In this document: in pieces, positions 4,777 through 46,087 of the stretch
Numbering within the stretch: position 1 is the stretch's first letter
How the letters are laid out: the number at the start of each line of letters is the position of its first letter
Assembly: GCA_964385285.1 (NCBI GenBank)
Contig: CAYLOJ010000005.1
Coordinates: 493-64,492, forward strand
Reading direction: 5' to 3'
DNA length: 64,000 nucleotides
Source of the DNA: an uncultured Gammaproteobacteria bacterium
GTDB lineage: Bacteria; Patescibacteriota; Patescibacteriia; UBA9570
The notes under the pieces: generated by a model
Seen by the model: the letters and a program-made list of their open reading frames with translations, nothing else
Told to the model about the DNA's origin: nothing
Databases searched by the model: none
Position numbers and translations under genes: made by a program

Positions 4777-4932
4777 GTGGCCCGGGGCGACCATCTTCGC
4801 CCCACCCCCCCCCTGAACCTAGCATTACGCTGGTAGGTTGAGGTGAGTTTTTCCCTGGACAATTTTTATAAATAGTTTACTCTGCTAGCGCTCAGTACGC
4901 TTAGGCGTTCACCCACTGAGTCGGAGTTTCCA

Positions 4933-5187
4933 ATGCTTCCTCCTGACACTAGTGTTTCTGCATACGACCCCGACGACGACTACACCACCGACTCCCAGGG
5001 CTGTGGCGCCGGCGGAACGCCGCCCCGCCTGCCCACCGTCGATCCGGACGACGAGTCCGACGACGTAGCGATCCCCGAACCCACGGTGATCGCTGCGGAT
5101 GGCGAGCCTGTCGACCCACCCGTCGTCGCTGAGGATGACGACGAGCCGGAGTCCGATGACCCCGCCTATTGGGGGCACCACGAGTAG
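4933..5187 (+). CDS. small acidic Pro/Asp-rich low-complexity ORF (doubtful)
   Basis: 84 aa, GC3-rich, but low-complexity sequence in a high-GC region with overlapping ORFs on both strands. Confidence 0.2.
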   Translation: MLPPDTSVSAYDPDDDYTTDSQGCGAGGTPPRLPTVDPDDESDDVAIPEPTVIAADGEPVDPPVVAEDDDEPESDDPAYWGHHE

Positions 5188-5489
5188 CTACTGAGCTACG
5201 GAGGATGGCCAGGGGAGCGCACACGTGCTCCCCACCACTCTTGAATGTAACCATGCGTTGCTTTGAAGAGTGGTCTAAACGATTTCTCGCTAAAGCGCAT
5301 GATGGTCATTGACTGGATGGCATTTTTTCAGTAATGTCTGAACGCTATATTGTTCTTTTGAGTTTAGAGAAAGATTATATTATGGATCATCAGCGGACAT
5401 GTGGTGAGCTAAGTGGAGATAATGACTATCTCTAGCTAGCTCACTACAGAGTTCGGATTCCACCGGACCTGTTTTCACATGGAGCGTTC

Positions 5490-6761: not shown

Positions 6762-6934
6762 TTCCTGATCTTCTCTCTACTTCCACCCAGGAGGTGACCA
6801 TCATCTGATGGCCGCGAGGAGAGACCAGTACATCTCTCCTCAACGCCCTTGAGATAACCTAACTAGGTTGTTTGAAGGGCGTGATAGAACCGATTCAGGT
6901 TGAGTTCTATAAAGTAAGATGTTATCATTCTGTC

Positions 6935-10583: not shown

Positions 10584-10587
10584 TTTT

Positions 10588-11472
10588 ATGGGCATTCTTC
10601 GTTTACGTTACATCTGGTACACCATCTCTGCTCTGCTTGTAAGTGCGAGCATCGTTGCCATGTTTGTGTATGGGTTCAAATTAGGGATTGATTTTACTGG
10701 TGGAACCTTACTACAAATACATTACACAGTTGAGCGCCCTACGATTACTGAACTTACTGAACAATTACAACCGTTAAATCTTGGTGAGACACTTATTGAA
10801 CCAGTGAATGCAGACGGCTACATTATTAAGACTCAGTTCATTAATGATGATCAGCGAGTGGCTATTCTGCAAGCGTTAGGGAGCAACGCGGTCGAAGATA
10901 GTTTTGAAACGGTTGGTCCGACCATTGGTCAAGAATTGCGTCAGAAAGCGGTGACCGCGATTGTGCTCGTGATGTTGGCTATTGTGATCTATATCGCCTG
11001 GGCCTTTCGAGGCGTTTCAAAAGGGCCGGTGCCATCCTGGGCCTTTGGCTTGTCCGCGATTATCGCCTTATTCCATGATGTTCTTATCCCGTTGGGTGTG
11101 TTTGCTGTATTAGGGGAGTGGCTCGGCGTGGAAGTGAATGTGATGTTTATTACGGCTTTGTTAACCATCCTGGGTTTTTCTATACATGATACGATTGTAG
11201 TGTTTGATCGTATTCGAGAAAATTTGCGTCGTAGTAGTCAAGTTACCTTTGCAGGCGTCATTGGTGAGAGTATTCAACAGACTTTAATGCGTTCATTAAA
11301 TACCTCAGTTACCGTAGTCATTGTGCTGGCAGTATTACTACTCTTTGGTGGGGAGTCGATTCGCTATTTCATCCTAGCCTTAATGATTGGCATTGGAGTT
11401 GGTACCTATTCTTCTATTTTTATTGCTTCGCCATCGCTATTGATTTGGCAAAAATTGTTACGCAAGCACTAG
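10588..11472 (+). CDS. secF: protein translocase subunit SecF
   Basis: 'GIDFTGGT' motif; 6 TM helices; immediately downstream of secD. Confidence 0.9.
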   Translation: MGILRLRYIWYTISALLVSASIVAMFVYGFKLGIDFTGGTLLQIHYTVERPTITELTEQLQPLNLGETLIEPVNADGYIIKTQFINDDQRVAILQALGSNAVEDSFETVGPTIGQELRQKAVTAIVLVMLAIVIYIAWAFRGVSKGPVPSWAFGLSAIIALFHDVLIPLGVFAVLGEWLGVEVNVMFITALLTILGFSIHDTIVVFDRIRENLRRSSQVTFAGVIGESIQQTLMRSLNTSVTVVIVLAVLLLFGGESIRYFILALMIGIGVGTYSSIFIASPSLLIWQKLLRKH

Positions 11473-11545
11473 TCTTGCGTTATGAAACATATTTGACAGT
11501 TTGTAAAAGAAATGATATACTATTAAATGTAGTTATCATTAGATT

Positions 11546-12673
11546 TTGATGTTTATGGATAATGCAGGTTCAATTTTGGATCGTATTATTGCCAGCAAAG
11601 AAGATCAAGAGAAGCAGGAATTTCAGCCTTTAGAGGTGATTCGTGGTTTGCTTAGTGTACTAAGTGAAAAAGAAGCCGATGTCTTACAGCGACGCTACGG
11701 ATTAAATGGAGTGGCCAAAGAAACGTTAGAGGCGATTGGTGCTTCATACCACGTGACACGTGAACGCATCCGTCAAATTGAAAACTTGGCGGTGAAGAAG
11801 ATTAAAGACGATTCCACATTTCTCTCAGTCATTAAACCCGTTGAGCATGTAATTATCAGCACCATCGAGGAGCATGGTGGAATTATGCAGGAAGAGCATC
11901 TACTCAATGAACTGATGCCAAGCAACCGTACAGCTGCCTTTGATCAAGCCTTAGTCTTCCTACTCACTGAATTATTAGATGATCGTGTTTCTAAGGTTGG
12001 ACCTGATAAGGTTTTCATGAAAGGTTGGCGTGTTAAAACTGCCGATCTCCATTTTATTGGAGATGCTTTAGAGATGTTAGCCAAAACGATTCGTGAAGCT
12101 AATCTGCCGCTAGATTTGGCTGCTTTACTAGAGCGTATTCAGACCGATAGTTTTTATCTGCAGCATGCGGAGCGGCTGAGTGAAAAAACCATCCTCGCTA
12201 TTTTGGAAGTCAGTGCGGTGATTGATCATAACCCGTTTGATGAATATGGTTTGCGTGAGTGGGGTAGTGTAGTGCCTAAACGCATGAACGATAAGATCTA
12301 TCTCATTTTAAAGAAAGTGGGCAAGCCGATGCATTTCATTGATATTGCTAAACAAATTAGTGAAGTGTTTGGCAAAGAAGCTTACCCTCCCACCGTGCAT
12401 AATGAGTTGATCTTAAATAGTCATTATGTGCTGGTCGGACGTGGCATTTATGCCTTGTCGGAGTGGGGGTATGAAAAAGGTGTTGTAGCTGATGTGATCT
12501 CCACAGTATTGCAAGTGAAAGGCAGTCCAATGACACGTGATCAAATTGTCCAAGCGGTGTTAGAACGTAGAATTGTCAAGAAAAACACTATTCATTTAGC
12601 GCTCACTAATAAGAAATTATTTAGTAAGTTGCCCGACGGCCGTTACACCTTAGCGCCGCAGGCAGCCGAATAG
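11546..12673 (+). CDS. protein with N-terminal sigma-70 region-4-like HTH, unknown C-terminal domain
   Basis: 'ADVLQRRYGLNGVAKETLEAIGASYHVTRERIRQIENLAVKKIK' closely matches the sigma-70 region 4.2 consensus. The remaining ~280 aa are unassigned. Confidence 0.5.
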   Translation: MMFMDNAGSILDRIIASKEDQEKQEFQPLEVIRGLLSVLSEKEADVLQRRYGLNGVAKETLEAIGASYHVTRERIRQIENLAVKKIKDDSTFLSVIKPVEHVIISTIEEHGGIMQEEHLLNELMPSNRTAAFDQALVFLLTELLDDRVSKVGPDKVFMKGWRVKTADLHFIGDALEMLAKTIREANLPLDLAALLERIQTDSFYLQHAERLSEKTILAILEVSAVIDHNPFDEYGLREWGSVVPKRMNDKIYLILKKVGKPMHFIDIAKQISEVFGKEAYPPTVHNELILNSHYVLVGRGIYALSEWGYEKGVVADVISTVLQVKGSPMTRDQIVQAVLERRIVKKNTIHLALTNKKLFSKLPDGRYTLAPQAAE

Positions 12674-12677
12674 CAAT

Positions 12678-14237
12678 ATGCCGATTTGGCTGGAGACGAT
12701 CATTACTGAATATGGCAGCAACCCGTTCAAGGCGTTGTGGTTTGTGTTGGGTCACGGCGGTGCCTTGATTTTCATTCCAATCATGATCAAGATGGCCACT
12801 ACTGGCTGGATCTTTTGGTTGCAGGAAGTGTACAAACACCATATGCCTCATACGATGTATCGAGTAGAGGTGCCGCAGAACAATGAACAGAGTATGAAGG
12901 CCGTTGAACAGATTTTTGTGCAGTTGTATGGTTCCTACAATGAACCAGACTGGTGGGAAAAATGGTGGCTTGGCTTTGTGCAGGAAGAGTTTTCGTTTGA
13001 GATTGTTAGTGATGGTGGCTATATTACTTTTTATGTTCGCACTCCCACTAAATACAAAGAAATTTTGCAGTCAGCTTTTTATTCGCATTATCCAGATGCT
13101 ATCTTAACTGAGGTGGAGGATTATACCAAAGAAATTACAGTAGACATGATTAATGACGGGAAGGTGAAAGTCTGGGGCTCGGAAATGAAATTAGAAAACG
13201 ATGACGTTCAGCCAATTAAACCGTATCCGGCATTTGAACATCAGCTAACCGGTAAGGCAGTGGATCCGATGGCTAATATGTTAGAGTTGATGAGCCGCAT
13301 GCAACCTGGAGAAAAATTGTGGTATCAAATTATGGCCCAACCTACCAGTTTGGCACACTTGAAGCATCGTTCAGAGGCAGCGATCACAGCAATTGTTGAT
13401 CCTGGTAAAGCGGCGCATCATGGTGGGCCAGATATCTTAGACCACGTGACCAAGTTTGTCTGGATGGTCTTGGGTGGTATCCATAAAATTCTTTTTGGTG
13501 GCGAGGATGATGGTGGTGGTCATGAAGAAAAACCGGCCGGCCGTGAACGTTTAACTGGGCCAGAAAAAGAGTTTGTGGAGGAAGTCGATAAGAAAGCTTC
13601 CCGCTGGCCGTATCATACCAAAATTCGCTTTATGTATTTTGCTGCTCCTAAAATTTATGATGCAACGAAGGCACGTCGTGGTATGTTGGGTGCGTTTCGA
13701 TTGTATCGTTTTATTAATGCCTTTGCTGAAGGAACATTAACGCGCACAGATTGGGGTTGTTTACCGTACCGCTATATTCGTCCTGAACCACGATTACTGG
13801 CTCGAGCGCGCCATATGTTTTGGGCATATCGTTCACGGGACATGGAGCGTGGCGAACATGAAGGGTTTATACTGAGTACCGAAGAGTTGACTGCGATCTA
13901 TCACTTCCCATCGATTGATGTACGTGCTCCGTATGTGGCCAAAGCCCAATCACGTGGTGTGGAGCCACCAACGCTATTACGCTATGACGAAGGTGAGGCG
14001 GAACCGGGTATGGGGGTACAGATGGAGAAGGGTAGTACAGACCGAGTAATGACATCTGGTAGTGGAGTACTCTTAGAGCCGCCTACCAGTGTACTAGGTA
14101 GTGAACCGCCGCTAGTAGCACGACCCCGCGTGACCTTAGCGCAACCTGAAGATGTCCCTACGGAAGGTAGCTCTGAAGACCGTGCTGGCGTTCCCGGAGC
14201 AGATAGTGACGCCCCATCTAATTTACCGTTTGTATAA
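12678..14237 (+). CDS. hypothetical membrane-anchored protein (N-terminal TM pair, large soluble domain), immediately upstream of the VirD4-like ATPase
   Basis: N-terminal hydrophobic pair 'FKALWFVLGHGGALIFIPIMI..TTGWIFWL'; acidic Gly-rich stretch; Pro/Glu-rich tail. 5-nt gap to the next gene. Confidence 0.5.
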   Translation: MPIWLETIITEYGSNPFKALWFVLGHGGALIFIPIMIKMATTGWIFWLQEVYKHHMPHTMYRVEVPQNNEQSMKAVEQIFVQLYGSYNEPDWWEKWWLGFVQEEFSFEIVSDGGYITFYVRTPTKYKEILQSAFYSHYPDAILTEVEDYTKEITVDMINDGKVKVWGSEMKLENDDVQPIKPYPAFEHQLTGKAVDPMANMLELMSRMQPGEKLWYQIMAQPTSLAHLKHRSEAAITAIVDPGKAAHHGGPDILDHVTKFVWMVLGGIHKILFGGEDDGGGHEEKPAGRERLTGPEKEFVEEVDKKASRWPYHTKIRFMYFAAPKIYDATKARRGMLGAFRLYRFINAFAEGTLTRTDWGCLPYRYIRPEPRLLARARHMFWAYRSRDMERGEHEGFILSTEELTAIYHFPSIDVRAPYVAKAQSRGVEPPTLLRYDEGEAEPGMGVQMEKGSTDRVMTSGSGVLLEPPTSVLGSEPPLVARPRVTLAQPEDVPTEGSSEDRAGVPGADSDAPSNLPFV

Positions 14238-14242
14238 TACTT

Positions 14243-16621
14243 ATGTCTGCAGATATTACAGTCTTTGCCGAAACTAATTTCCGTAACCAACGACGTAAGT
14301 TTGGTATTAAGCGCGATGACCGTCGTCGTCATATGTACGTGGTGGGTAAAACCGGTATGGGTAAATCGACCTTGCTGGAAAATATGATTATTGCCGATAT
14401 CCGCGCTGGTAATGGGTTGGCAGTCGTTGATCCGCACGGCGATCTGGCGGAAAAAATTCTAGAATATATTCCGAATAATCGGGTAAACGATGTAATCTAT
14501 TTTAATCCATCGGATACAAAATTTCCGATCGCCTTCAATATTTTGGAGAGCATTGGCGAAGATTACAAACATTTAGTGGCCTACGGCTTAGTCGGTGTGT
14601 TCAAGAAAATCTGGGCAGATTCGTGGGGTCCTCGTATGGAATATATTATGACCAACACTATCTTGGCGCTGTTGGAGTATCCCGGTAGTACGTTGTTAGG
14701 GTTAATGCGCATGTTGGTAGACAAAACCTATCGCAAAAAGGTTGTTTCCAAAATTCAGGATCCGGTCGTAAAAACCTTCTGGGCAGATGAGTACGCAAAT
14801 TATTCTGAAAAGTTCCGTACAGAGGCGATTGCTCCGATCCAAAACAAAGTCGGTCAATTTTTAGCTTCTGCCATTATTCGTAATATCGTTGGACAATCGA
14901 AAAGTACGATTGAGATGCGCGATATTATGGATAAGCAGAAGATTCTGATTATGAATCTAGCGAAAGGCCGTATTGGTGAAGAAAACTCCGCGTTGTTAGG
15001 CGCAATGATGATTACAAAATTGCAGATTGCCGCGATGAGTCGTGTGGATATTCCAGAACCAGATCGTAAGGATTTTTATCTCTATGTTGATGAGTTTCAG
15101 AACTTTGCCACCGATAGTTTTGCGGGAATTTTATCTGAAGCGCGTAAATATCGGTTGTGTTTAATTATGGCTCATCAGTACTTTGAGCAGCTGGGAGATG
15201 TGGTGAAAGCCGCTGTGTTCGGTAACGTTGGTACGATGATTGTATTTCGCGTAGGTGCGGCGGATGCTGCGGAATTAGAACTGGAATTTGCTCCGCAGTT
15301 CTTGCCAACGGATATTGTAAACCTGAAAAAGTATACTTTTTGCTTGCGTCTGATGGTGGATGGCGTTGCAACCGAACCTTTTTCTGGCATTGGTTTAGCG
15401 CCGGCGTCAGGTGCTACTAGTAACCGAGATAAAATTATTAAGGTGTCACGTGAACGCTATGCGCGTCCACAGGAGATGGTAGAAGATCGTATCATTCGGT
15501 GGAGTGGTGTAGAAATTACCAAACCCGGTGCTACTCCGGTTGATGGTGCACCAGTTGATGATAACAATGATGAAGGGGATGATATGAACTGGCCTGAACC
15601 CACTTGGAAAAATGATCTGCCAGATGATGAGTTAGCGGATATTAGTCCGATTGTGGCAGTGCCAGGCGGTGTGAATGTGGAAGCACCGGTAGCTAATACT
15701 AGCAGTGCCTTTGTAAATGCGGATGGATTTATTCCTGGTGATCACGCTCCTACAATCACAAAAACCCCTACTGAGATGCCAGTGGTCAAAGCTGAGCCTG
15801 TTGTGAAATTGGCTCCCGAGCCGATCAGTGAGGTGCCAGCCGCAGTAACAGCTAGTACAACAGAAGCCAATCGTCCGCGGATTAGCTTTATTAACCATCT
15901 ACCATCTTCTTTGGCGACTGAACCTGTGGAAGAACCTCAACCGGTTGTTGCTGTACCGGTAGTGGATACACCCACACCTACAGTTATGCCTGTTCAACCT
16001 ATTGCACCGACCAAACCACAGCCGCAGGTGAAACAGGCCGTTACTCCACCCACATCTGTTCCGGTAGCACCACAACCTAAAGTGCAACCGATTGCGTCAA
16101 TCAAACCCCCCGTGGTGGCTCCTGTGCAATCCGCCGCACCGATCAAGCCAGCCGCGCCACGTGTTGTACTTGAAACAGAGCCAGACGCTACGGATGATGA
16201 AGGCGATGAGGATACTGACGATGAGGATACTGAAGGTACTGACACTAGTGGTCCAAGTGTTTCTTTGCAGGCACTCAAACAGGGTAATGTCCAATCCGTA
16301 AAATTTTCTGGTGCTCAGAATACTAGTGGTAGTAATAATGGGGTAGGTAATAGTAATTCTGGTGGTGGCGATCCAGCAAAACGTAAACGGAAGCGTAAAC
16401 GGAAGCGTGGAAATGGCAGTGGTAATCCTAGTACCCCTGGTGTTAATCCCGTTGCTGCAACGAGCAACCCTCAACCTAAACAAACTTTTTCTGCGGAAGC
16501 CAGGCCGCGTGCTCAAACTCCTCAACCTAGCCCTGCAGCTAAGCCTGTGGCTCCAGCGCCAACTCCTAAACCAGCCGTCAGTGCTGATACCACTAAAGTA
16601 CAGTGGGGCGATCTATTATGA
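14243..16621 (+). CDS. VirD4/TraG/TraD-like type IV coupling-protein-type ATPase with long disordered Pro/Val/Ala/Thr-rich C-terminal tail
   Basis: Walker A 'VVGKTGMGKST' and Walker B 'LYVDEFQNF' in the TraD/T4SS-DNA-transfer arrangement. The last ~330 aa are low complexity with an acidic 'TDDEGDEDTDDEDTEGTDT' stretch and 'KRKRKRKRKRG'. Confidence 0.6.
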   Translation: MSADITVFAETNFRNQRRKFGIKRDDRRRHMYVVGKTGMGKSTLLENMIIADIRAGNGLAVVDPHGDLAEKILEYIPNNRVNDVIYFNPSDTKFPIAFNILESIGEDYKHLVAYGLVGVFKKIWADSWGPRMEYIMTNTILALLEYPGSTLLGLMRMLVDKTYRKKVVSKIQDPVVKTFWADEYANYSEKFRTEAIAPIQNKVGQFLASAIIRNIVGQSKSTIEMRDIMDKQKILIMNLAKGRIGEENSALLGAMMITKLQIAAMSRVDIPEPDRKDFYLYVDEFQNFATDSFAGILSEARKYRLCLIMAHQYFEQLGDVVKAAVFGNVGTMIVFRVGAADAAELELEFAPQFLPTDIVNLKKYTFCLRLMVDGVATEPFSGIGLAPASGATSNRDKIIKVSRERYARPQEMVEDRIIRWSGVEITKPGATPVDGAPVDDNNDEGDDMNWPEPTWKNDLPDDELADISPIVAVPGGVNVEAPVANTSSAFVNADGFIPGDHAPTITKTPTEMPVVKAEPVVKLAPEPISEVPAAVTASTTEANRPRISFINHLPSSLATEPVEEPQPVVAVPVVDTPTPTVMPVQPIAPTKPQPQVKQAVTPPTSVPVAPQPKVQPIASIKPPVVAPVQSAAPIKPAAPRVVLETEPDATDDEGDEDTDDEDTEGTDTSGPSVSLQALKQGNVQSVKFSGAQNTSGSNNGVGNSNSGGGDPAKRKRKRKRKRGNGSGNPSTPGVNPVAATSNPQPKQTFSAEARPRAQTPQPSPAAKPVAPAPTPKPAVSADTTKVQWGDLL

Positions 16622-18210
16622 TCTTGGCGACTTGTTCGCAGTGCCAACAAGCGTTTTCCATTTTTGAGCAAGATCAGACCTTTTACAAGCGTCTTGGAGT
16701 GCCAAATCCTGTACGCTGTCCGCAATGTCGATTTCAGTTGCGCATGTCATTTCGGAATGAACGGTTTCTCTACCAGCGGAATTGTGCGTTGTGCCATAAG
16801 GTCACTTTGTCACAATATTCACCAGATAAACCCTATGTCATTTATTGTCGTGCCTGTTGGTGGAGCGATCAATGGGATCCACTATCATTCGGACAGCCTA
16901 TCGATTGGTCTAGACCTTTTTTTGAGCAGCTGGCGGAGCTAAAGTTGCACACGCCGCGACTTGCATTACTGAACGATGGTGATAGTGAAAATAGTGAATA
17001 TTGTAACCGTGTGAATAAGCTGAAAAATTGCTACATGATCTTTGATGCTGTGGGGAATGAAAATTGTAGTTACGGTGCTGGCTTATACGGCAATCGAGAC
17101 AGCGTAGATTGTGATTATTGTGATCGCGTTGAGTTATGTTATGACTGTAGTTATTGCACAGAATGCTATAACCTAAAATTCAGCCGGGAGAGTGTGAATT
17201 GTCGAGACAGTGAGTACTTACTCGATTGCGTTGGTGTCTCTAATTCATTGATGTGTGTTGGTTTGCGGAATGTAGAGTATCATTATAAAAATAAACCGGT
17301 CACACCAGCGGAACTGAACCGACTACGACAGATGCCCCACAGCAGTGCTGAGTTTGAGCAATTTGCTTTAAACATGCCACGGCGCTACTACAATGGTGTA
17401 AATAACGCTGATAGTAGTGGTGATCATTTGGTAAATACACACGCTGTCCAAAACTCCTTTCAAGTGCGAGATTCTGAAAACTGTAGCTACTGTTATGGCG
17501 TGCATCACAGTAAGGATTCTTACGATTATACGATTTGGGGCGAACAAGCCGAACTGATGTATGAAGCGCATGCCTGTGGTGGACAGACAACACGCACCTT
17601 ATTTGGCAATGTGGTTTGGTACGGACACGATACCTATTATTGCGACCACTGCTTGAATGGAGCTGTAGATTGTTTTGGCTGCATTGGTTTAAAGAATCAA
17701 TCAAACTGTATTCTGAATAGATCATATTCTCCCGAAGTGTACCAAGCCACCAAAGATAAATTAATTGAACACATGAAAGCGACGGGTGAGTGGGGTCAAT
17801 TTTTTCCGGAGCGTTTGAGCGATTTTGCATATAATGAAACGATGGCTCAAGAATTCTTTCCGCTGACCAAAGCACAAGCTCTAACCCGAGGTTGGCAGTG
17901 GCAGGATCACTTACCCGGTATCTATGGTAAGGCTGATGCGGGTAAGCAGATCTATGATTGCATCGATTGTAGGAAGAATTTTAAATTGGTGACAGCAGAG
18001 CTAGAGTTCTATCAAAAACAGGGTATTCCTGCACCATCGCGCTGTCCGGATTGTCGGCACGCTGCCAGAATGCGATACAGGCCACCCTACCAACTATGGG
18101 AGCGCAGCTGCATGAACACGGGCTGCACGAATCGTTTCCAAACCGCTTATAGTCCAGAACGTAAAGAGATCATCTATTGTGATAGCTGCTATAAACAGTT
18201 AGTCTATTAA
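16618..18210 (+). CDS. Cys-rich tandem-family protein A (N- and C-terminal zinc-ribbon-like modules, Cys-rich repeats)
   Basis: ATG at 16618 overlaps the TGA of the upstream ATPase (ATGA). About 10% Cys. N-terminal 'CSQCQQ..FY..LGVPNPVRCPQCR..LRMSFRNERFLYQRNCALC..VIYCRACWWSD'. C-terminal 'FYQKQGIPAPSRCPDCRHAARMRYRPPYQLWERSC...IIYCDSCY'. Confidence 0.7.
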   Translation: MILATCSQCQQAFSIFEQDQTFYKRLGVPNPVRCPQCRFQLRMSFRNERFLYQRNCALCHKVTLSQYSPDKPYVIYCRACWWSDQWDPLSFGQPIDWSRPFFEQLAELKLHTPRLALLNDGDSENSEYCNRVNKLKNCYMIFDAVGNENCSYGAGLYGNRDSVDCDYCDRVELCYDCSYCTECYNLKFSRESVNCRDSEYLLDCVGVSNSLMCVGLRNVEYHYKNKPVTPAELNRLRQMPHSSAEFEQFALNMPRRYYNGVNNADSSGDHLVNTHAVQNSFQVRDSENCSYCYGVHHSKDSYDYTIWGEQAELMYEAHACGGQTTRTLFGNVVWYGHDTYYCDHCLNGAVDCFGCIGLKNQSNCILNRSYSPEVYQATKDKLIEHMKATGEWGQFFPERLSDFAYNETMAQEFFPLTKAQALTRGWQWQDHLPGIYGKADAGKQIYDCIDCRKNFKLVTAELEFYQKQGIPAPSRCPDCRHAARMRYRPPYQLWERSCMNTGCTNRFQTAYSPERKEIIYCDSCYKQLVY

Positions 18211-18211
18211 T

Positions 18212-19867
18212 ATGTCGTCGAACTGTCGACACTGTCAGTCTGCATTTGTAATCACGAGCAGTGACCAAGCTTATTATGATCGCATCGCCGTACCGGCACC
18301 AACCCTATGCCCGCGTTGTCGTTTGCAGCGTCGCCTAAACATGCGCAATGAACGTGTCTTGTATCGACGCTCATGCGATTTGACCAGTGAATCAATCGTG
18401 ACCATTTTTTCACCGGATAGCCCATATACGGTGTATAGCCAAAGCGCTTGGTGGAGCGATCGTTGGGATCAACTAAAATTTGGCCGGGAGATGGATTTTA
18501 CTCAGCCCTTCTTCGCGCAGTTAAAAGCTTTGCAACTACAGCAGCCGCGCATGGCCTTACTCGCCAAAGATAGCGAGAATTCTGAATATACTAATCATTC
18601 TGCTTACAACAAAAATTGTTATTTAGGTTTTTCTGTGGTGAATTGTGAAGACGTAGCGTACGGATTCATGAATTTTAAATGTCAAAATTTAGTGGATTGC
18701 AGTTACATGTATGATCATAGCGAGCTGTGTTATGAATCTTTCTATGGACACGGAAATTATCGCTGTGCTTACACCACGCTTTGTCGGAATTGCACGAATG
18801 TTTGGTTTAGTTTTGATCTAAGTGGTTGTAAGGATTGCTTCTTGTCATATAACCTGCGCAATAAGCAATATTGTTTTTTAAATCAGCAATTAACTGCCGT
18901 TGAATATCAGCAGCGCGTGGCTGAGTATCAAACCATGACCTATGAGCAACAGCAGGGTCTTATTCAACAATGGCGGATGCTAATGGCTACGCAAGCCGTG
19001 CATCAAGCAACTCATCAAATTCATTGTTCAGACACCACGGGTAATTATCTGGCGCGGTGTCATCAAGTGCACGAAGGATATTATGTATCCGAGGCAGAAA
19101 ATTGTAGTTATGTAGCGCAAGCGGAAAATATTAAAGATTGTGTTGATGTAACCAATGTAGCACCGGCCGAAGCCTGTTATGAGGTTGCGGCTATTATTAA
19201 TGATAATCATTGCAAGTTTACCAACTACTCATATGATGATAGTTTCTTAGAATATTGCGATCACGTATTTAATTCACAACATCTCTTTGGTTGTGTTGGT
19301 CTAAATCGCCAGAAGTATTGTATTTTGAATCGGCAATATACGGAACCAGAATACGAGCGATTAAAAGCCAAATTAATCGCTTACATGAAAACGACGGGGG
19401 AGTACGGTGAGTTTTTCCCCTTAGGATATTCACCCTTTGCGTATAACGAAACGGTTGCCCAGGATTTTTTCCCTCTCACCAAAGCGCAAGCCCTAGCCTT
19501 GGGTGCTCAGTGGAATGATGCACTCGATCTCTTATCGCCAATTACCAATGGAGTAGATGCAAGTACATTGCCAGATACGATTGCTGGTGTTGAGGATGAT
19601 ATCCTGACTAAAACGTTGATATGCATTGTCTCTAAACGTGCCTATAAAATTCAACCCACTGAACTGTACCTGTATCGACAGCTGGGAATACCGTTGCCAC
19701 GTAAACATCCCGAAGTTCGGTTGAAGGAGCGCATGACCCAACGGGTCACCCCCGGTTTATTTGAACGCCAGTGCAACAAATGTTTACGGTCAGTGGCATC
19801 CAGTTTTGCAGCCGATCGTTCAGAGCGGATCTATTGTGCAAGCTGTTATCGCGAGGCCGTTTATTAG
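18212..19867 (+). CDS. Cys-rich tandem-family protein B (partly degenerate zinc ligands)
   Basis: Starts 1 nt after A's stop. N-terminal 'CRHCQ...YYDRIAVPAPTLCPRCRLQRRLNMRNERVLYRRSC', but the second knuckle is lost ('VYSQSAWWSD'). The C-terminal module has 'RKHPEVR' in place of CPxCR. Confidence 0.7.
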   Translation: MSSNCRHCQSAFVITSSDQAYYDRIAVPAPTLCPRCRLQRRLNMRNERVLYRRSCDLTSESIVTIFSPDSPYTVYSQSAWWSDRWDQLKFGREMDFTQPFFAQLKALQLQQPRMALLAKDSENSEYTNHSAYNKNCYLGFSVVNCEDVAYGFMNFKCQNLVDCSYMYDHSELCYESFYGHGNYRCAYTTLCRNCTNVWFSFDLSGCKDCFLSYNLRNKQYCFLNQQLTAVEYQQRVAEYQTMTYEQQQGLIQQWRMLMATQAVHQATHQIHCSDTTGNYLARCHQVHEGYYVSEAENCSYVAQAENIKDCVDVTNVAPAEACYEVAAIINDNHCKFTNYSYDDSFLEYCDHVFNSQHLFGCVGLNRQKYCILNRQYTEPEYERLKAKLIAYMKTTGEYGEFFPLGYSPFAYNETVAQDFFPLTKAQALALGAQWNDALDLLSPITNGVDASTLPDTIAGVEDDILTKTLICIVSKRAYKIQPTELYLYRQLGIPLPRKHPEVRLKERMTQRVTPGLFERQCNKCLRSVASSFAADRSERIYCASCYREAVY

Positions 19868-19989
19868 CGTATACTATTAATTGACATGTGACTGAATAAT
19901 TTATACTAAGGTTAGGTGAAAATAAATATTCGAACGCTAAAAATCTAATTCCATTTGACCACGTTAAGCCATTCCATTACGCTTCTGTT
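19868..19989 (+). repeat. duplicated intergenic block, copy 1 (after family gene B)
   Basis: Shares 'TAGCGTATA..T..ATTGACAT' and 'AAAwATCTAAwTmCAwTTGACCACGyTTAGC' with 23258-23395. Confidence 0.55.
19881..19909 (+). promoter_or_regulatory. sigma70-type promoter for family genes C-D
   Basis: TTGACA (19881-19886), 17-nt spacer, TATACT (19904-19909); lies in the intergenic block duplicated at 23258-23395. Confidence 0.5.
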
Positions 19990-21567
19990 ATGCCAACTCG
20001 TACATGTACCAATTGCTCCGGACAATTTAATCTCTCATCTGCAGATGAAAAATTTTATCAGTCCATCAGTGCACCACTACCCAAACAGTGTCCGCGTTGT
20101 CGCCAGCAGCGGCGCTTAGCGTATCGTAACGAACGCGCATTATTTGCTGATCAGTGTGCGAAATGTCAAACAAAGATTTTGTCATTGTATCAACCCACGG
20201 ATGGTTTGACGGTCTATTGCCAGACGTGTTGGTGGAGTGATGATTGGGATGCAGCCGATTATGGACAGGAGATCGATTGGAATCGTTCATTGTTGGAGCA
20301 ATATCAGGAAGTACGCAAACGTGTACCGCGCCTAGCCATTGTCAATTTGAATAGTGAAAATTCAGATTACACCAACATGTCAGCGGACAACAAAAATTGT
20401 TATCTATTGTTCGCATCAGAAAACTGTGAGAACTGTTCCTATGGAAAATTAGTTCAACACTGCAAAGACTGCTTTGATAATGCTTTTCTGTATGATTCTG
20501 AATTGTGTTATGAATGCATTAATTGTCGCAATTGTTTTCAGTGTACATATTTGCAGGATTCCCAAGACTCACGAGATTGTCATTACTCGTTAGGCTTAAA
20601 AGGTTGCAGTAATGTTTTTTTAAGCAATGATTTGCATAATAAAGAGTATTATATTCGTAACCAACCCGTTGCCCCGCAGGAATATGCAGCCAAGGTAGCA
20701 GAGTTATTAAAGGATCAACCGCAATGTCAGCGAGAATGGGATGCGTTATCACAAAAACGGATTGTAAAATACGCCGGAATTTTGAATAGCCCAGATTGCA
20801 CTGGTGACGCACTGACCAATTGTAAACGTGTGTTTGACTCGTATGATATTACCGATGGTCAAGATATCCGTTATTGCAGTGATGCCCTCACTCCGAAAGA
20901 TAGTTATGATTGTTCATTCTTCTATTACAATCCAGAATTGTGTTACGACTCACTCAGCATGCTGGAAACATACAACGTGCATTATTCAACCTTTATTTTT
21001 TATAGTCGTGATGTTGAATATGGTGATCAGATCCACAATAGTCATGACGTCTTATTATCTTCTTGCCTCCGTAAAAAAGAGTACACCATATTAAATAAAG
21101 TTTACTCTCCTACGGAATACGCAGACTTACGGAAGCGAGTGATTGCTAAAATGACCGAAGATGGTGAATACGGAGCCTTGCCGCCACTGAAGTATAGTTT
21201 GTTTGCCTATAATGATACTGTCGCTAACGAATACTTTCCATTGACCGCTGATCAAGCCAAACAAAGACATCTACGTTGGAACCAATCCGCAGATGCTGTA
21301 ACTACTAAGCCCTTTAACCTGACAGCGGCCGAAAAAGCCTTTTACGCTCAATTACATTTAACCGAACCTACTGTACATCCCGAACTGCGTCATCGTCGTC
21401 GCATGGCTAAACGTAATCCACGCAAATTATGGGAGCGCCAGTGTATGTGCGTGGAGGCAGATCATCAGCACGCCGTACAGTGTCCTAAGAAGTTTCACAC
21501 TACGTATATGCCTGATCGTTCAGAAAGTGTCTATTGTGCCGAGTGTTATCAAAAACGTTTTTACTAA
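19990..21567 (+). CDS. Cys-rich tandem-family protein C
   Basis: N-terminal 'CTNCSG..FYQSISAPLPKQCPRCRQQRRLAYRNERALFADQCAKC..VYCQTCWWSD'. C-terminal '...VHPELRHRRRMAKRNPRKLWERQCMC..DHQH..VYCAECY'. Confidence 0.7.
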   Translation: MPTRTCTNCSGQFNLSSADEKFYQSISAPLPKQCPRCRQQRRLAYRNERALFADQCAKCQTKILSLYQPTDGLTVYCQTCWWSDDWDAADYGQEIDWNRSLLEQYQEVRKRVPRLAIVNLNSENSDYTNMSADNKNCYLLFASENCENCSYGKLVQHCKDCFDNAFLYDSELCYECINCRNCFQCTYLQDSQDSRDCHYSLGLKGCSNVFLSNDLHNKEYYIRNQPVAPQEYAAKVAELLKDQPQCQREWDALSQKRIVKYAGILNSPDCTGDALTNCKRVFDSYDITDGQDIRYCSDALTPKDSYDCSFFYYNPELCYDSLSMLETYNVHYSTFIFYSRDVEYGDQIHNSHDVLLSSCLRKKEYTILNKVYSPTEYADLRKRVIAKMTEDGEYGALPPLKYSLFAYNDTVANEYFPLTADQAKQRHLRWNQSADAVTTKPFNLTAAEKAFYAQLHLTEPTVHPELRHRRRMAKRNPRKLWERQCMCVEADHQHAVQCPKKFHTTYMPDRSESVYCAECYQKRFY

Positions 21568-21586
21568 CTTCTGAGCTGGTTGAAGT

Positions 21587-23257
21587 ATGAATATCCAATG
21601 CCAACAGTGTCACAAAACGTTTCAGGTCACGCCCGATGACCAGTCGTTTTACGAACGGATCAAAGTACCTGCACCGACACTATGTCCAGATTGTCGCTAT
21701 CAGCGGCGCATTGTGTGGAGGAATGAGCGAACGTTATATAGTCGCCAGTGTGATCTTTGCCATAAAGGTATTATCTCGCTCTATCATCCGGCAAGTCCCT
21801 ACACGGTCTATTGCTATGAGTGCTGGTACTCTGATCAATGGAATCCATTAGATTACGGGCAGGAGATCGATTTTAGTCGTCCATTTTTTGAGCAGTTCAA
21901 AGCGTTGCAGCTAAAAGTCCCTCGGTTGTATGCCTTGATGGTTAACAATGAAAATTGTGAATATACCAATGGTACTCAGCAATGCAAAGATTGTTACATG
22001 ATTTTTGCTAGTGATCATGACGAACAGTGTATGTATTCCTATGGCACCTTTAATTCTGTGCAATCATTAGATCTAATGAGTAGTACTAAATGTGAGCTGT
22101 GTTATGAATGTGTTGGTTGCAGCAATTGTTATGATCTGCAGTATTCTGAGGATTGCAGTAATTGTCACTCCTCACTATTTCTGATTGACTGCAAGGGGAG
22201 TAGTGATTGCTTCATGTCGTATGGATTGCGAAATAAACAATATGTTTGGCAAAATCAGCAATTAACAGCTGAACAGTATCAGACAAAGCTGGCAAATTTA
22301 AAACGCAGTAGCTATCAAACGATTGCTCGGCTAAAAACAGAGTTTGCTAATCTGAAAAAGAAACACATCTTCAAATATTATCATGGCCAGAATAATGAGA
22401 ATTGTTCTGGTGACTACCTGGAGCGGTGTGTCAATAGTACTCACTGCTTTGAAAGTTTTGGGATTCAAAATTGCAAGTATATTACACATGGTAACCAAAT
22501 TAAAGATACCTATGATGGTTATATGAATGTGGATGGAGTGGAGCTCGGTTATGAATTAGTGGGGGCGATTGGTTCCTATAATGTGAAGTATGCGATTGCC
22601 TATTATGGTGGCCGAGATTGTGACTATATGGATACGGCCAAACAGGTGAATAACAGTTTTGGTTGTGTGGGATTGCAGCACCAGCAGTATTGTATTCTGA
22701 ACAAACGCTACAGCCCAGAAGACTATGCCCAGTTGAAGAGTCGTCTGATTGAACATATGAAAACTACGGGTGAGTATGGTCAGAATTTTCCAGTGACCTG
22801 TTCACCATTCGCGTATAATGAAACAGCAGCTCAGGACATGTATCCTTTGACCAAAGCTGAAGTGGAGGGTCGGGGATGGCAATGGCGTGATCCAATCGTC
22901 AAAGAGGCGCGCTATAGTACTTATCGTGTAACGGATGACATCGCTAAAACTAATGATGATGTCTTGCAAACATTTTTGACCTGTGCGCAATGCCATAAGC
23001 CTTATAGAGTTGTAGCAGCAGAATTGGCGTTTTACCGTACGCAACAGATTCCGTTGCCACGCTGCTGTTTTGAATGTCGTCATCGCCAGCGCTTAGATCA
23101 CCGCAACCCGAGAGCTCTCTGGCATAGGCAGTGCATGTGCACTCAACCAGATCATGGCCACGCTGCAGTTTGTGCCAACACCTTTGAAACGGCTTATCCA
23201 GAGAGTAATGCGGCAATTGTCTACTGTGAACGCTGCTACGATCAAACCATTGCTTAA
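21587..23257 (+). CDS. Cys-rich tandem-family protein D
   Basis: N-terminal 'CQQCHKTF..FYERIKVPAPTLCPDCRYQRRIVWRNERTLYSRQCDLC..VYCYECWYSD'. C-terminal 'FYRTQQIPLPRCCFECRHRQRLDHRNPRALWHRQCMC..DHGH..VYCERCY'. 19 nt after C. Confidence 0.7.
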   Translation: MNIQCQQCHKTFQVTPDDQSFYERIKVPAPTLCPDCRYQRRIVWRNERTLYSRQCDLCHKGIISLYHPASPYTVYCYECWYSDQWNPLDYGQEIDFSRPFFEQFKALQLKVPRLYALMVNNENCEYTNGTQQCKDCYMIFASDHDEQCMYSYGTFNSVQSLDLMSSTKCELCYECVGCSNCYDLQYSEDCSNCHSSLFLIDCKGSSDCFMSYGLRNKQYVWQNQQLTAEQYQTKLANLKRSSYQTIARLKTEFANLKKKHIFKYYHGQNNENCSGDYLERCVNSTHCFESFGIQNCKYITHGNQIKDTYDGYMNVDGVELGYELVGAIGSYNVKYAIAYYGGRDCDYMDTAKQVNNSFGCVGLQHQQYCILNKRYSPEDYAQLKSRLIEHMKTTGEYGQNFPVTCSPFAYNETAAQDMYPLTKAEVEGRGWQWRDPIVKEARYSTYRVTDDIAKTNDDVLQTFLTCAQCHKPYRVVAAELAFYRTQQIPLPRCCFECRHRQRLDHRNPRALWHRQCMCTQPDHGHAAVCANTFETAYPESNAAIVYCERCYDQTIA

Positions 23258-23395
23258 TAGCGTATAAGTTCAATTGACATTCACGTATTTTTTGCTAACC
23301 TAAAATTAGGTATTTTTTGAATTTTCCCCAGCTAAATATCTAAATACAATTGACCACGCTTAGCACTAATATTACCGTAAGATCATTGCACCACT
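23258..23395 (+). repeat. duplicated intergenic block, copy 2 (after family gene D)
   Basis: See copy 1: same conserved ends, internal indels. Confidence 0.55.
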
Positions 23396-24172
23396 ATGAT
23401 TACTAGCAAAGTTAAGAAAGATCTTTCCCAACTAGGTTTAACCGACAACGAGATCAAATTCTATGTGGCCGGATTGGAGTTAGGCTTGGCGACGATTCCA
23501 CAAATTGCTGAACGCGCCGGTTTATCCCGCATGACTGGTTATAACATTTTTAAAGTGTTGAGCCAGAAAGGGATGGCCGATATGGATGTACGTAGTTATG
23601 GTCAGAAATGTAAAGTGGCGAAACCAGCAAAATTACTCACTTTGTTTGAGCAGGAACGCAAAAGCTTAGATAAATTGGCCACCGACATGCCCAATTTAAT
23701 TGGGGAGTTGAATGTGTTGTATTCCTCAGTACCAGAGGATTTAGAGATCCATTACTTTCGCGCGAAAGAAGCGATCACTAAAATTTGGGACGAGGCCTTA
23801 ACCAACACAAAAAAAGGGGATGATCTATTAGTGCTATCCGCTGTAGATCTAGCGCCTACTCTGGGTGAACACTATCTGGAATTCATGGAAGAGCAACTGT
23901 TGCGTAGTACAGAGAAAGGGATTCACCTGAAAATGATTTTGGAAAAAACAGGTACCTATACCATCGCGCGAAGTGAGCTACAGCAACTTATTCCAGAATC
24001 AATGCAAATGAAATTAGGCGCTACATGTGATCAATTGATTTATGCTGATCACGTGGCCTACATATTTCCAGGCCGTGAATTGTTTGGCATCACTATTCAC
24101 AATAAAGAATTGGCTAATCACCATTCCAGAATTTTCTACACGTTGTGGAATAAAACCTATTCGTTAAATTAA
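23396..24172 (+). CDS. TrmB-family HTH transcriptional regulator
   Basis: N-terminal 'LSQLGLTDNEIKFYVAGLELGLATIPQIAERAGLSRMTGYNIFKVLSQKGM' fits the TrmB wHTH pattern (GL..E.KVY..LL..G..T..EIA...G..R..VY..L..L..KG). Embedded between family genes D and E. Confidence 0.6.
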   Translation: MITSKVKKDLSQLGLTDNEIKFYVAGLELGLATIPQIAERAGLSRMTGYNIFKVLSQKGMADMDVRSYGQKCKVAKPAKLLTLFEQERKSLDKLATDMPNLIGELNVLYSSVPEDLEIHYFRAKEAITKIWDEALTNTKKGDDLLVLSAVDLAPTLGEHYLEFMEEQLLRSTEKGIHLKMILEKTGTYTIARSELQQLIPESMQMKLGATCDQLIYADHVAYIFPGRELFGITIHNKELANHHSRIFYTLWNKTYSLN

Positions 24173-24258
24173 TTACCGTTTAGTAATGGGCATAAAGCCC
24201 ATCCCTCTCAATTATTTCTGGAGACCCCGGGTTTATCCTGGTGGTCAAACGATTATTT

Positions 24259-25887
24259 ATGCAAACTTCCCAATGTCAAAATTGTAGTAAAACCTTCCGT
24301 ATCACTGATACTGATTTAGCATTTTACAAAACGATCGATGTTCCATCACCCACACATTGTCCAGATTGTCGACAACGTCGGCGGTTAGCCTGGCGCAATG
24401 AGCATACGTTATATAACCGGCAGTGCGATCTCTGTAAAAAAGCCATTGTCTCGATTTATCCGGCCAACTCCACGTTTACAATTTATTGCCATGACTGCTG
24501 GTGGAGTGATCAGTGGAACGCTTTAGATTATGGACAGGCGATTGATTGGGAAAGACCATTTTTTGCGCAGTGGAATGAACTGCAGCAAAAAGTGCCCAAG
24601 ATTGCCTTGTACGCAGCTGACAATGAACAATCGGATTATGTGAATATGACCGGATACAGCAAAGGTTGCTATTTAGTATTCGCCGGCGATTACGATGAGG
24701 ATTGCATGTATTCCACGCAAGCCATTAAATCGATTAGTTGTGTGGATACGTTGAATTGCACCGAAAGTGAGGATTGTTACGAAGTGGTCGATGTGGAGCG
24801 GTGTTACCGATTGTTTTGGTCACAGAATTGCAAGCATTGCACGGATAGTATGTTTTTATTTGATTGTCGTGGTTGTACAGATTGTTTATTTTCTACTAAC
24901 TTACGCAACCAACGCTATTACATTTTTAATAAGGAATATACACCAGAACAATATCAACAAAAAAAAGCTGAGTTAATTGCCGAAATCCGTTCTGGTAAGT
25001 TGCCGAGCCTGTTAAGACAGTTTCAAGACTTATGCATTAAAGCCATCCATCGTCCCTTGGAACAAGCCAATAGTGAAGCGATCTCCGGTGACTTTATCTT
25101 TAATTCTCAGGATGCGCAGCAATGTTATGACGTAAATGGTATTGAACATTGCCGCTATGTGTACACAGGATTTCATGTGAAGGACCTTATGGATGTCTGT
25201 CATACCACTGATATCGAATTAGGCTATGAGGCCACCAGCATTGGCTATAACGCATATAATTGTCAGTTTGTGATGACCGCTTGGACTGTACGAGATTGTT
25301 ATTACAGCACTGAGATTTTTCATAGTCATGATCTCTTTGGCTGTGTTGGCTTATCCAAGCAACAATTCTGTATATTAAATACACAGTACACCGAAGAGGA
25401 GTATCATCAGCTCAAGAAAAAATTGGTGGATCAGATGCGTGCAACAGGTGAGTATGGCGAGTTTTTTCCTATGTCACTCAGCCCGTTTGCCTATAACGCT
25501 AGCATGGCACAGGTGTGGTATCCGTTAACACGCGAGCAAGTTCAGGCTGAACAATTGCAATGGTATGAAGAGCCGGCCAAACTGAACACCAGCGGTACAG
25601 ATGTGCTGAGGTGCACCAAGACTGGTAGGTCATATCGTGTTATTCCACAGGAGCGTGCTTGGTATCAGCGAATGGGATTACCGATTCCAGTAGTGTGCCC
25701 TGATGAACGTCGCCGTCTCCGTTTTATTCAACGCAATCCACGCCAATTATGGCAACGGCAGTGCATGTGTACACAAACTGATCATCAACATCATGGACGT
25801 TGTAGCGAAGAGTTTGCCACTACCTATGCTCCAGATCGGAAAGAGCTAGTATATTGTGAGCACTGCTACCAGAAAGAGGTGCTTTAA
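24259..25887 (+). CDS. Cys-rich tandem-family protein E
   Basis: The ATG at 24259 ('MQTSQCQNC') aligns with the paralog starts; the track GTG at 24241 is an alternative. C-terminal 'GLPIPVVCPDERRRLRFIQRNPRQLWQRQCMC..DHQHH..VYCEHCY'. Confidence 0.7.
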   Translation: MQTSQCQNCSKTFRITDTDLAFYKTIDVPSPTHCPDCRQRRRLAWRNEHTLYNRQCDLCKKAIVSIYPANSTFTIYCHDCWWSDQWNALDYGQAIDWERPFFAQWNELQQKVPKIALYAADNEQSDYVNMTGYSKGCYLVFAGDYDEDCMYSTQAIKSISCVDTLNCTESEDCYEVVDVERCYRLFWSQNCKHCTDSMFLFDCRGCTDCLFSTNLRNQRYYIFNKEYTPEQYQQKKAELIAEIRSGKLPSLLRQFQDLCIKAIHRPLEQANSEAISGDFIFNSQDAQQCYDVNGIEHCRYVYTGFHVKDLMDVCHTTDIELGYEATSIGYNAYNCQFVMTAWTVRDCYYSTEIFHSHDLFGCVGLSKQQFCILNTQYTEEEYHQLKKKLVDQMRATGEYGEFFPMSLSPFAYNASMAQVWYPLTREQVQAEQLQWYEEPAKLNTSGTDVLRCTKTGRSYRVIPQERAWYQRMGLPIPVVCPDERRRLRFIQRNPRQLWQRQCMCTQTDHQHHGRCSEEFATTYAPDRKELVYCEHCYQKEVL

Positions 25888-45310: not shown

Positions 45311-45312
45311 AT

Positions 45313-46023: not shown

Positions 46024-46087
46024 GCGATGACTGTACTGATTAATTAGTGATTTGTCAATACTATCGGAAGGTGTATACTCACTACGT

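Follow-up and report, generated by a model that had tools for sequence, protein, structure and literature searches.

We analyzed a 64,000-nucleotide (nt) stretch of contig CAYLOJ010000005.1, referred to below as the window, in whose coordinates all positions are given. The subject of this analysis is a tandem array of five genes for large cysteine-rich proteins, designated paralogs A to E. A gene for a TrmB-like winged-helix regulator lies within the array, between D and E, and the array directly follows a gene for a VirD4/TrwB-like ATPase of the type IV coupling protein (T4CP) family. The features of the locus are as follows (aa, amino acids).

12678-14237 (+): DUF8128-like membrane protein, 519 aa, with a transmembrane (TM) segment at residues 19 to 37 (Kyte-Doolittle 19-residue mean, 1.99)
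14243-16621 (+): VirD4/TrwB-like ATPase (T4CP family), with a soluble ATPase domain (residues 1 to 420) and a 372-aa low-complexity tail
16618-18210 (+): paralog A, 530 aa from the ATG start of the NCBI call (535 aa from an upstream GTG at 16603)
18212-19867 (+): paralog B, 551 aa
19868-19989 (no strand): B-C intergenic region, with boxes AATTGACAT (19879-19887) and TTTGACCACGTTAAGC (19954-19969)
19990-21567 (+): paralog C, 525 aa
21587-23257 (+): paralog D, 556 aa, the member chosen for structure modeling
23258-23395 (no strand): D-TrmB intergenic region, with the same two boxes at 23272-23280 and 23349-23364
23396-24172 (+): TrmB-like winged-helix regulator, 258 aa (PF01978, 36.1 bits against a cutoff of 25.6; E = 5.7e-9)
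24259-25887 (+): paralog E, 542 aa (548 aa from an upstream GTG at 24241)

For A and E, the start codons used here are those of the public gene calls. An earlier reading of this DNA from the sequence alone, the original prediction, had described five co-directional genes of 525 to 556 aa; all five are intact open reading frames (ORFs) on the + strand, and a tblastn search found exactly five copies in the window. The proteins align end to end at 35.1 to 44.1% mutual identity over 512 to 543 aligned columns, in agreement with the earlier estimate of about 35 to 45%. The gaps between the genes are 1 nt (A-B), 122 nt (B-C), 19 nt (C-D), and 983 nt (D-E), which bears out the A-B and C-D spacing given before. 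The cysteine content required correction: in place of roughly 50 cysteines per protein, we counted 36, 30, 32, 39, and 34 in A, B, C, D, and E, respectively (5.4 to 7.0%). No TM segment was found in A to E (the Kyte-Doolittle 19-residue mean peaks at ≤1.13), and their N termini are CxxC zinc knuckles with no signal peptide, as had been proposed; the proteins are best explained as cytoplasmic. Their closest relatives, among them proteins of Candidatus Kerfeldbacteria, are 74 to 78% identical, and the source organism is a patescibacterium. Housekeeping genes surround the array (SecDF, serine hydroxymethyltransferase, QueG, and a MutY/EndoIII-type glycosylase).

Each terminus of the paralogs is a double zinc module (zf_Tbcl plus zf_Tbcl_2). 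The N-terminal finger matches the Pfam family PF13451 (zf_Tbcl) above the 24-bit gathering threshold in A (39.0 bits; E = 7.8e-10), B (28.5 bits), and D (27.2 bits); C (17.9 bits) and E (19.7 bits) fall below this threshold yet can be aligned column for column with the other paralogs. The second finger matches PF23477 (zf_Tbcl_2) weakly, at 10.7 to 15.3 bits in the window proteins, where the gathering threshold is 27 bits. At E ≤ 1, PF13451 matches 35 of 64 family members and PF23477 matches 29 of the 64 (best PF23477 E value, 1.9e-5). The N- and C-terminal modules are homologous to each other (hhalign, 99.7%; E = 1.6e-26). The plan of each protein includes four predicted Cys4 sites, of which N1 and C2 are the outer ones and N2 and C1 are the inner ones. 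Both outer sites read CCCC in all five paralogs (N1 in D is C5, C8, C33, and C36) and are intact in 98 to 100% of the 64 aligned members; the inner sites are intact in 83 to 100%, with about 15% of relatives having lost one. All four predicted sites are kept in A and D, both inner sites are gone in B, and C1 is deleted in C and degenerate in E. In both modules, the second zinc knuckle is followed by an invariant arginine pair with i/i+4 spacing, R41/R45 at the N-terminal end and R498/R502 at the C-terminal end. The end modules have isoelectric points (pI) of 6.8 to 9.7 (8.4 to 9.7 for 7 of the 10), compared to 4.6 to 6.2 for the halves of the solenoid that lies between them, and the C-terminal modules carry a net charge of +3 to +9. 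The terminal modules are predicted to bind zinc.

PF13451 and PF23477 are "probable treble clef" fingers (NCBI name, "zinc-ribbon domain containing protein"), and both families are defined by the small finger alone, without known function. Here, by contrast, such fingers occur at both termini, as two pairs that flank a core of ~340 residues absent from the libraries, and fingers and core together form a fixed architecture of ~550 aa. The earlier statement that the family could not be assigned to any characterized domain therefore needs to be narrowed: it holds for the central ~340 aa, and the terminal fingers do fall into Pfam families (PF13451 and, weakly, PF23477), neither of which is characterized; the confident Pfam hits are confined to these small fingers. 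The C-terminal finger also resembles LIM domains below significance (a CRP LIM domain in the PDB, E = 0.067; Pfam LIM, PF00412, in 4 of the 64 members, best E = 1e-3). Both types of module consist of two consecutive Cys4-type fingers, but the ligand spacing differs from that of this family and LIM domains are eukaryotic.

The central ~340 aa had no match in Pfam, NCBIfam, or the PDB, and the core remains unplaced by sequence and fold, as originally described. An AlphaFold2 (AF2) model of D, built with 64 homologs, reached a mean predicted local distance difference test score (pLDDT) of 86 and a predicted template modeling score (pTM) of 0.84, with the following layout.

D residues 1-99: double zinc module
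D residues ~100-240: first Cys-rich repeat region, of which residues 130 to 210 are mostly coil with a pLDDT of only ~60; helices come next
D residues ~260-375: second β-rich region
D after residue ~375: helices and a very conserved motif, GEYG..FP...SPFAYNET.AQ..FPLT, and then a variable linker
D residues 463-556: second double zinc module

The two central halves are homologous in profile-profile comparison (hhalign, 99.8%; E = 1.4e-30), which points to an internal duplication, and the core models as an internally duplicated, acidic, Cys/Ser-rich β-solenoid. Cysteine recurs at every third position in 43 columns of the central region, including the stretch from 124 to 220. These cysteines are replaced mainly by serine, and only five positions are more than 90% conserved in the 64-member alignment. 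A search for paired Cys-Cys covariation, as disulfides or metal clusters would leave, found no obligate pairs (maximum phi, 0.38), and the second solenoid half has few cysteines and the same small-residue pattern as the first. We read this pattern as a ladder of small residues and not as defined disulfides or metal clusters. Because the first half is poorly modeled, however, a metal-binding reading of that half is kept open.

Structural comparison of the model to the PDB using Foldseek returned generic β-solenoid neighbors only (best E = 0.012; TM score ≤ 0.19), and a search of PDB sequences with the 64-sequence profile gave nothing below E = 0.067. In PHROGs, the solenoid weakly matched phrog_15341, a family of unknown function. 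Other known β-solenoids, including the Cys-rich insect antifreeze β-helices, the hexapeptide left-handed β-helix enzymes, curli CsgA, and bactofilin, showed no significant match to the family, which differs from them in having no hexapeptide Pfam match, no signal peptide, and a cysteine spacing of 3 rather than 6 or 12. We considered two such identities specifically. For a hexapeptide transferase or gamma-carbonic anhydrase, there was neither a hexapeptide-repeat profile match nor a significant fold match; for an insect-type Cys-ladder antifreeze protein, the signal peptide and the paired cysteine covariation are missing. The sole sequence outside Patescibacteria with any similarity to the family is a weak tblastn match (E = 8e-4) between the first Cys-rich half and a protein of Vibrio phage 1.238.B (MG592604.1; 2914-3288 of locus L083 in our set). 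This 124-aa phage protein, annotated "insect antifreeze protein," is made up almost wholly of CxxC triplet/hexapeptide repeats (CEDCKDCADCWDCKGCKEC).

We found the family in Patescibacteria (the candidate phyla radiation [CPR]) only, and throughout that phylum. A word-indexed search returned 2,742 relatives, and all named ones belong to Patescibacteria and are annotated as hypothetical or as "zinc-ribbon domain containing protein." The profile of the central region alone matched 3,792 clusters (50% identity) at E ≤ 1e-3 and 1,690 at E ≤ 1e-30, with a uniform architecture in which the core occupies approximately residues 100 to 440 of ~550 aa. A scan of GTDB species genomes gave at least 594 confirmed stretches. 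By record title, the lineages among the matches listed are Kerfeld- and Falkowbacteria; the Paceibacterota group, including Staskawicz-, Giovannoni-, Nomura-, and Harrisonbacteria; and Gracili-, Peregrini-, and Peribacteria and Abawacabacteria. Two family records labeled Gammaproteobacteria are probably mis-binned, and one of them (locus L018) has the TrmB-in-array arrangement of the window. A phage collection held no relatives and IMG/VR held a single 28-residue fragment, and we reject a mobile-element or phage origin on these grounds. An exact-match search of contigs with protein D returned no record. A search for domain fusions among the longest relatives found one, P0180 (731 aa), in which a GNAT acetyltransferase domain lies N-terminal to the first zinc module; this single case may be a gene-call fusion. 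Searches of the literature for zf_Tbcl/PF13451, DUF8128, CPR Cys-rich families, and zinc ribbons in Patescibacteria found no description of the family.

To compare gene content, we used 81 fetched family-anchored loci with a mean length of 17 kb. The family is present as a single copy in 21 of them and as 2 to 10 copies within ≤22 kb in the other 60, nearly always on one strand. The original prediction had called the array a large investment for a small genome, and other Patescibacteria go further, with up to at least 10 copies in 22 kb. The paralogs are ancient, as sequence comparison indicates and as had been proposed: across 246 family genes, median identity is 41% within an array and 39% between genomes, and the nearest relative lies in the gene's own array for only 14 of the 246. 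We reject recent duplication and concerted evolution on these values. Clusters at ~42% identity track class boundaries, which suggests that the class-level expansions of the family are old. In Kerfeldbacteria-type genomes, A, C, and D have orthologs that are 60 to 75% identical, about the divergence of SecF (64 to 68%); specifically, A orthologs are 67 to 74% identical in loci L018 and L043, C orthologs are 60 to 67% identical in L001, L018, and L043, and D orthologs are 62 to 75% identical. B has no 1:1 ortholog in related Kerfeldbacteria-type loci (best, 40%), and neither does E, whose best ortholog, in L013, is 54 to 55% identical. Because B and E lack 1:1 orthologs, array content turns over. 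Nonsynonymous differences per site (pN, 0.16 to 0.31) are far below the saturated synonymous value (pS, 0.83 to 0.88); thus, the paralog genes are functional and under purifying selection. Given the intact ORFs and these values, we reject the idea that they are pseudogenes.

The TrmB-type gene that had been placed between D and E is confirmed by its PF01978 score. The protein shows no Pfam domain beyond residue 63 and thus no match to the C-terminal sugar-binding domain of characterized TrmB; its scores against the TrmB equivalogs of NCBIfam are well short of the cutoffs, and a sequence search found no PDB relative. Its orthologs are 72 to 82% identical and hold the same position in syntenic loci. 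More broadly, TrmB-like relatives lie inside arrays in 19 of the 81 family loci (28 genes, up to 4 per locus), and none were found in 80 loci anchored on the ATPase (described below). TrmB-like genes therefore go with the arrays and not with the ATPase, and they are an integral and recurrent part of such arrays.

The two intergenic regions that precede C and the TrmB-like gene are homologous along their length and have two boxes in common, AATTGACAT and TTGACCACGYTWAGC. As a 16-mer, the second box is present two times in the window, compared to 0.16 occurrences expected. Its core, TTGACCACG, lies 20 to 35 nt upstream of start codons. The core also precedes the TrmB orthologs of L001, L016, and L043, and the ortholog of L018 is preceded by a version with one mismatch, TTGACCACA; in L013 and L016, the core precedes family genes. 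The B-C region is a probable promoter or operator. The common element fits a promoter/operator that would serve C-D and the TrmB-like gene, with E possibly served by read-through, and the TrmB-like protein may bind the boxes and regulate the array. A promoter and terminator scan performed no better than on shuffled sequences, and no Rfam families were found in the window. Since the TrmB-E gap (24173-24258) has no copy of the conserved boxes, E may depend on read-through from the promoter of the TrmB-like gene. This gap contains two small hairpins, one (ATGGGC-ATAA-GCCCAT) near 24186-24201 and the other, which resembles a terminator stem, at 24217-24231.

The ATPase encoded immediately upstream of the array matches PF10412 (TrwB_AAD_bind) with 49.3 bits (cutoff, 20.5), and its best PDB relative is TrwB (E = 7.5e-9). 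Its tail (15503-16621) is rich in P, V, A, and T and carries an acidic D/E patch (DDEGDEDTDDEDTEGTD) and a basic run, KRKRKRKRKR or (KR)5; this tail may be a docking region. The preceding DUF8128-like protein matches the N-terminal half (residues 24 to 365) of phrog_5156, and the ATPase matches the C-terminal half. This phage family (824 aa, function unknown) extends over DUF8128 and the ATPase together (E = 8e-63). The DUF8128-like ortholog in L001 gave a faint match to PF26449. We regard the DUF8128-like protein as the separate membrane anchor of the T4CP-like ATPase. The TGA stop codon of the ATPase gene overlaps the ATG of A as ATGA, and the junctions upstream of A are 4 to 5 nt.

In the window, the gene order is SecD-SecF, a protein with sigma-70 region 4 and a HARE-HTH (helix-turn-helix) domain, the DUF8128-like protein, the VirD4-like ATPase, A, and B. 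Other Kerfeldbacteria-type loci and a Staskawiczbacterium share this order. In Peri-, Gracili-, and Abawacabacteria, the array is followed downstream by the gene for a VirD4-like protein of ~747 aa, which appears, from its length and clustering, to be a DUF8128-VirD4 fusion. Some Paceibacteria loci have a short VirD4-like gene (~490 aa) beside the array. Three ATPase architectures (split, ~747 aa, and ~490 aa) are thus found near arrays, in both gene orders and in at least three classes. Of the 81 family loci, 22 have a VirD4-like gene within 10 kb; this gene is mostly next to the array and shares its strand in 20 of the loci. For arrays with at least four copies, the count is 14 of 31. About 3 loci would be expected by chance, given ~2 T4CP genes per Patescibacteria genome (PMC12102498), an assumed genome of ~1 Mb, and the mean locus length. 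When the ORFs of the 81 loci were clustered, the only recurrent neighbors were the TrmB-like (19 loci) and DUF8128/VirD4-like (20 loci) proteins, and no other cluster reached more than 9 loci.

As a reciprocal control, we examined 80 metagenome loci anchored on ATPases 58 to 71% identical to that of the window. In most of them, the VirD4-like gene is preceded by SecF, the sigma/HARE protein, or DUF8128. The ATPase is part of a widespread conserved block, and arrays are often but not always placed beside it, in several classes and in varied arrangements; the link between ATPase and array is recurrent but facultative. The block itself (window 8919-16621: SecD-SecF, the 375-aa sigma-70 region 4 plus HARE-HTH protein, DUF8128-like, and VirD4-like) occurs with or without arrays, and the stretch from SecD to VirD4 was also seen in L001, L043, L069, and most of L084 to L163. 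The sigma/HARE gene is immediately preceded, at 11493-11521, by a strong promoter-like site (TTGACA-17-TATACT, plus a TG upstream of it). We found no virB4, relaxase, or other type IV secretion system (T4SS) genes among the annotated ORFs of the window. In keeping with this absence, a 2025 survey of Patescibacteria T4SS counted 5,713 VirD4-like/T4CP genes, only 148 of them near virB4, and left their role open; it does not mention the array family (PMC12102498).

Several other features of the window lie apart from the array. A GC-rich island at 4000-6800 (55 to 65% GC, compared to ~45% in the background) contains genes for serine hydroxymethyltransferase (5490-6761) and a DUF2062-like membrane protein (3880-4776), and it looks like a horizontally acquired segment. 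It is flanked by genes for two paralogous secreted-type proteins (2404-3804 and 6872-8353) with FG-GAP repeats and a YkuD L,D-transpeptidase domain. Two paralogous NOX-like membrane ferric reductases (Ferric_reduct plus FAD and NAD domains) are encoded at 30811-32115 (-) and 56921-58198 (+), which is unusual for a small fermentative genome. A 1,623-aa protein with LysM and SLT lytic-transglycosylase domains (36968-41839) is a candidate cell wall-attacking or host-interaction protein. An ABC-3 (Znu/Mnt-type) metal permease and its ATPase (44498-46128, -) lie ~20 kb from the array, a position of interest in view of the array's need for zinc, but no such linkage was seen in other loci.

These results lead us to a working model in which the paralogs would be cytoplasmic, zinc-binding, rod-like proteins with a basic double-finger module at each end and an acidic solenoid between them. 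The two invariant end modules may act as constant heads that bind nucleic acid (most likely DNA) or an acidic protein segment, with the more variable solenoid body as the source of paralog-specific specificity. The heads are invariant and basic, and variation falls on the linker, the surface of the solenoid, and the inner zinc sites, which suggests a common ligand for the heads and paralog-specific bodies. The TrmB-like protein would control the array and itself via the common upstream element. A and B would, at least in this genome, be made together with a membrane-anchored T4CP-like ATPase (DUF8128 plus VirD4-like), for which the paralogs may act as accessory or adaptor proteins. We assign a rough probability of 0.3 to this tentative reading, namely, that the paralogs are bivalent adaptors whose basic zinc modules bind nucleic acid or an acidic partner, that the TrmB-like protein regulates them, and that they cooperate in part with the T4CP-like ATPase. 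There is precedent in conjugation, where DNA-binding accessory proteins dock on the tails of coupling proteins (TraM on TraD and TrwA on TrwB). As with these proteins and with T4SS substrates, the paralog genes adjoin, and here are translationally coupled to, the gene for a TrwB/VirD4-family ATPase with a long C-terminal tail, and the acidic patch in that tail, taken as disordered, counts in favor of the adaptor reading. TraM and TrwA, however, have no sequence or fold relationship to the paralogs, the window has no annotated relaxase or virB4, and ATPase adjacency is facultative.

Several points weigh against the adaptor reading. The family was present in only 5 of the 80 ATPase-anchored loci (4 of the 24 that extend at least 4 kb to either side), and 59 of the 81 family loci have no ATPase within reach. 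The loci are also phylogenetically non-independent. LIM-like double fingers usually bind proteins and not DNA, and the low pLDDT of the first solenoid half (~60) leaves the rod picture uncertain there. With regard to the roles offered in the original prediction, a partner or substrate of the ATPase draws partial comparative support from the ATGA overlap and the co-occurrence in family-anchored loci, with weak linkage in the reciprocal survey; a nucleic acid-binding zinc protein is plausible, given the basic charge and the invariant arginines of the zinc modules; and the third role, a diversifying defense family, found no support, as discussed below.

If the ATPase link reflects transport, the paralogs could be exported clients, that is, cargo of the T4CP-like ATPase, acting alone or with a T4SS encoded elsewhere, which would deliver an effector, surface, or fiber repertoire to the cell surface or a host with the basic, Arg-rich C-terminal module as the recognition signal. 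The adjacency and ATGA translational coupling agree with this idea, as do the strongly basic C-terminal modules, since T4SS signals are typically C-terminal and positively charged. Type VII secretion systems (T7SS) offer a precedent for uniform paralog arrays beside an ATPase of the FtsK/VirD4 type, in that EccC/EssC, a membrane-anchored ATPase of this type, is encoded beside a row of divergent Esx, PE/PPE, or LXG genes. VirB2 pilin arrays, a further precedent, occur in Patescibacteria, where the orphan T4CPs have no assigned role (PMC12102498). The likeness to T7SS-like and pilin arrays is one of organization only, since the zinc proteins of this family are large, lack secretion motifs, and are old and conservatively evolving. 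Proteins with up to four Cys4 zinc sites would be cytoplasmic and stably folded and so poor substrates for an unfolding translocase, and the free exchange of Cys and Ser without paired covariation makes obligate disulfide ladders unlikely. The orthologs evolve about as slowly as SecF, with recent duplications nearly absent, unlike typical host-interaction repertoires; moreover, the ATPase link is facultative and the window has no annotated T4SS genes. On balance, we regard export as rather unlikely. An intracellular scaffold or cytoskeleton unrelated to the ATPase, in which LIM-like fingers mediate protein contacts and solenoids stack or bridge into a hetero-oligomeric structure, would accommodate the LIM similarity of the C-terminal finger, and ancient, stable paralog sets with within-class orthogroups fit distinct subunits. 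A copy number that ranges from 1 to at least 10 across genomes and turnover of array content among close relatives are hard to fit to a fixed complex, though, and the structural similarities are all weak, which makes such a scaffold quite unlikely.

Alternatively, the 30 to 39 cysteines might store or traffic zinc or Fe-S clusters or buffer oxidants, with the first half serving as a CxxC-repeat metal region in place of a β-helix. The spacing of cysteine at every third residue over 124 to 220, the mostly coil, low-pLDDT prediction expected when cofactors are missing, and the match to the pure CxxC-repeat phage protein are all compatible with a buffer. A buffer would not account for the low conservation of the central cysteines, which give way mainly to serine with no coordinated loss, and the Cys-poor second half with the same small-residue pattern better fits a structural ladder. 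Nor would it need the invariant arginines and the GEYG...SPFAYNET...FPLT motif, and we consider this role improbable. The proposal of a diversifying antiphage defense or immunity family drew on the multicopy tandem arrays of divergent paralogs, and the neighboring ATPase does weakly match the HerA and mad8 defense models. However, the paralogs and the TrmB-like protein had no PADLOC matches at E ≤ 0.1, and apart from the short IMG/VR fragment, the family is absent from the phage and IMG/VR collections. Furthermore, its members are ancient paralogs under purifying selection with almost no recent duplication. In several classes, the arrays sit at a conserved place in the chromosome amid housekeeping genes, and no defense genes recur beside them. 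A defense role is therefore very improbable.

Patescibacteria account for a large part of bacterial diversity, have genomes of ~1 Mb, and carry lineage-specific genes that are mostly unexplained; very few of their proteins have an established function. The family described here can take up 1 to 2% of such a genome, has a fixed, unusual architecture with no characterized relative and its own regulators, and is undescribed in the searchable literature. It is also the first family to offer concrete candidates for partners of this phylum's orphan coupling-protein ATPases. In a broader, rather doubtful version of this idea, the arrays would be the missing partners of those VirD4-like ATPases, which nearly all Patescibacteria encode at a distance from their T4SS, and, together with DUF8128 and dedicated TrmB-like regulators, would form a previously unrecognized, phylum-specific machine that exports a repertoire of zinc/β-solenoid proteins to the host or handles DNA on its way in or out. 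If this is true, the export or DNA-handling role of the machine would be central to the episymbiotic lifestyle; if the proteins are only structural or metal buffering, they would still represent a sizeable new fold family.

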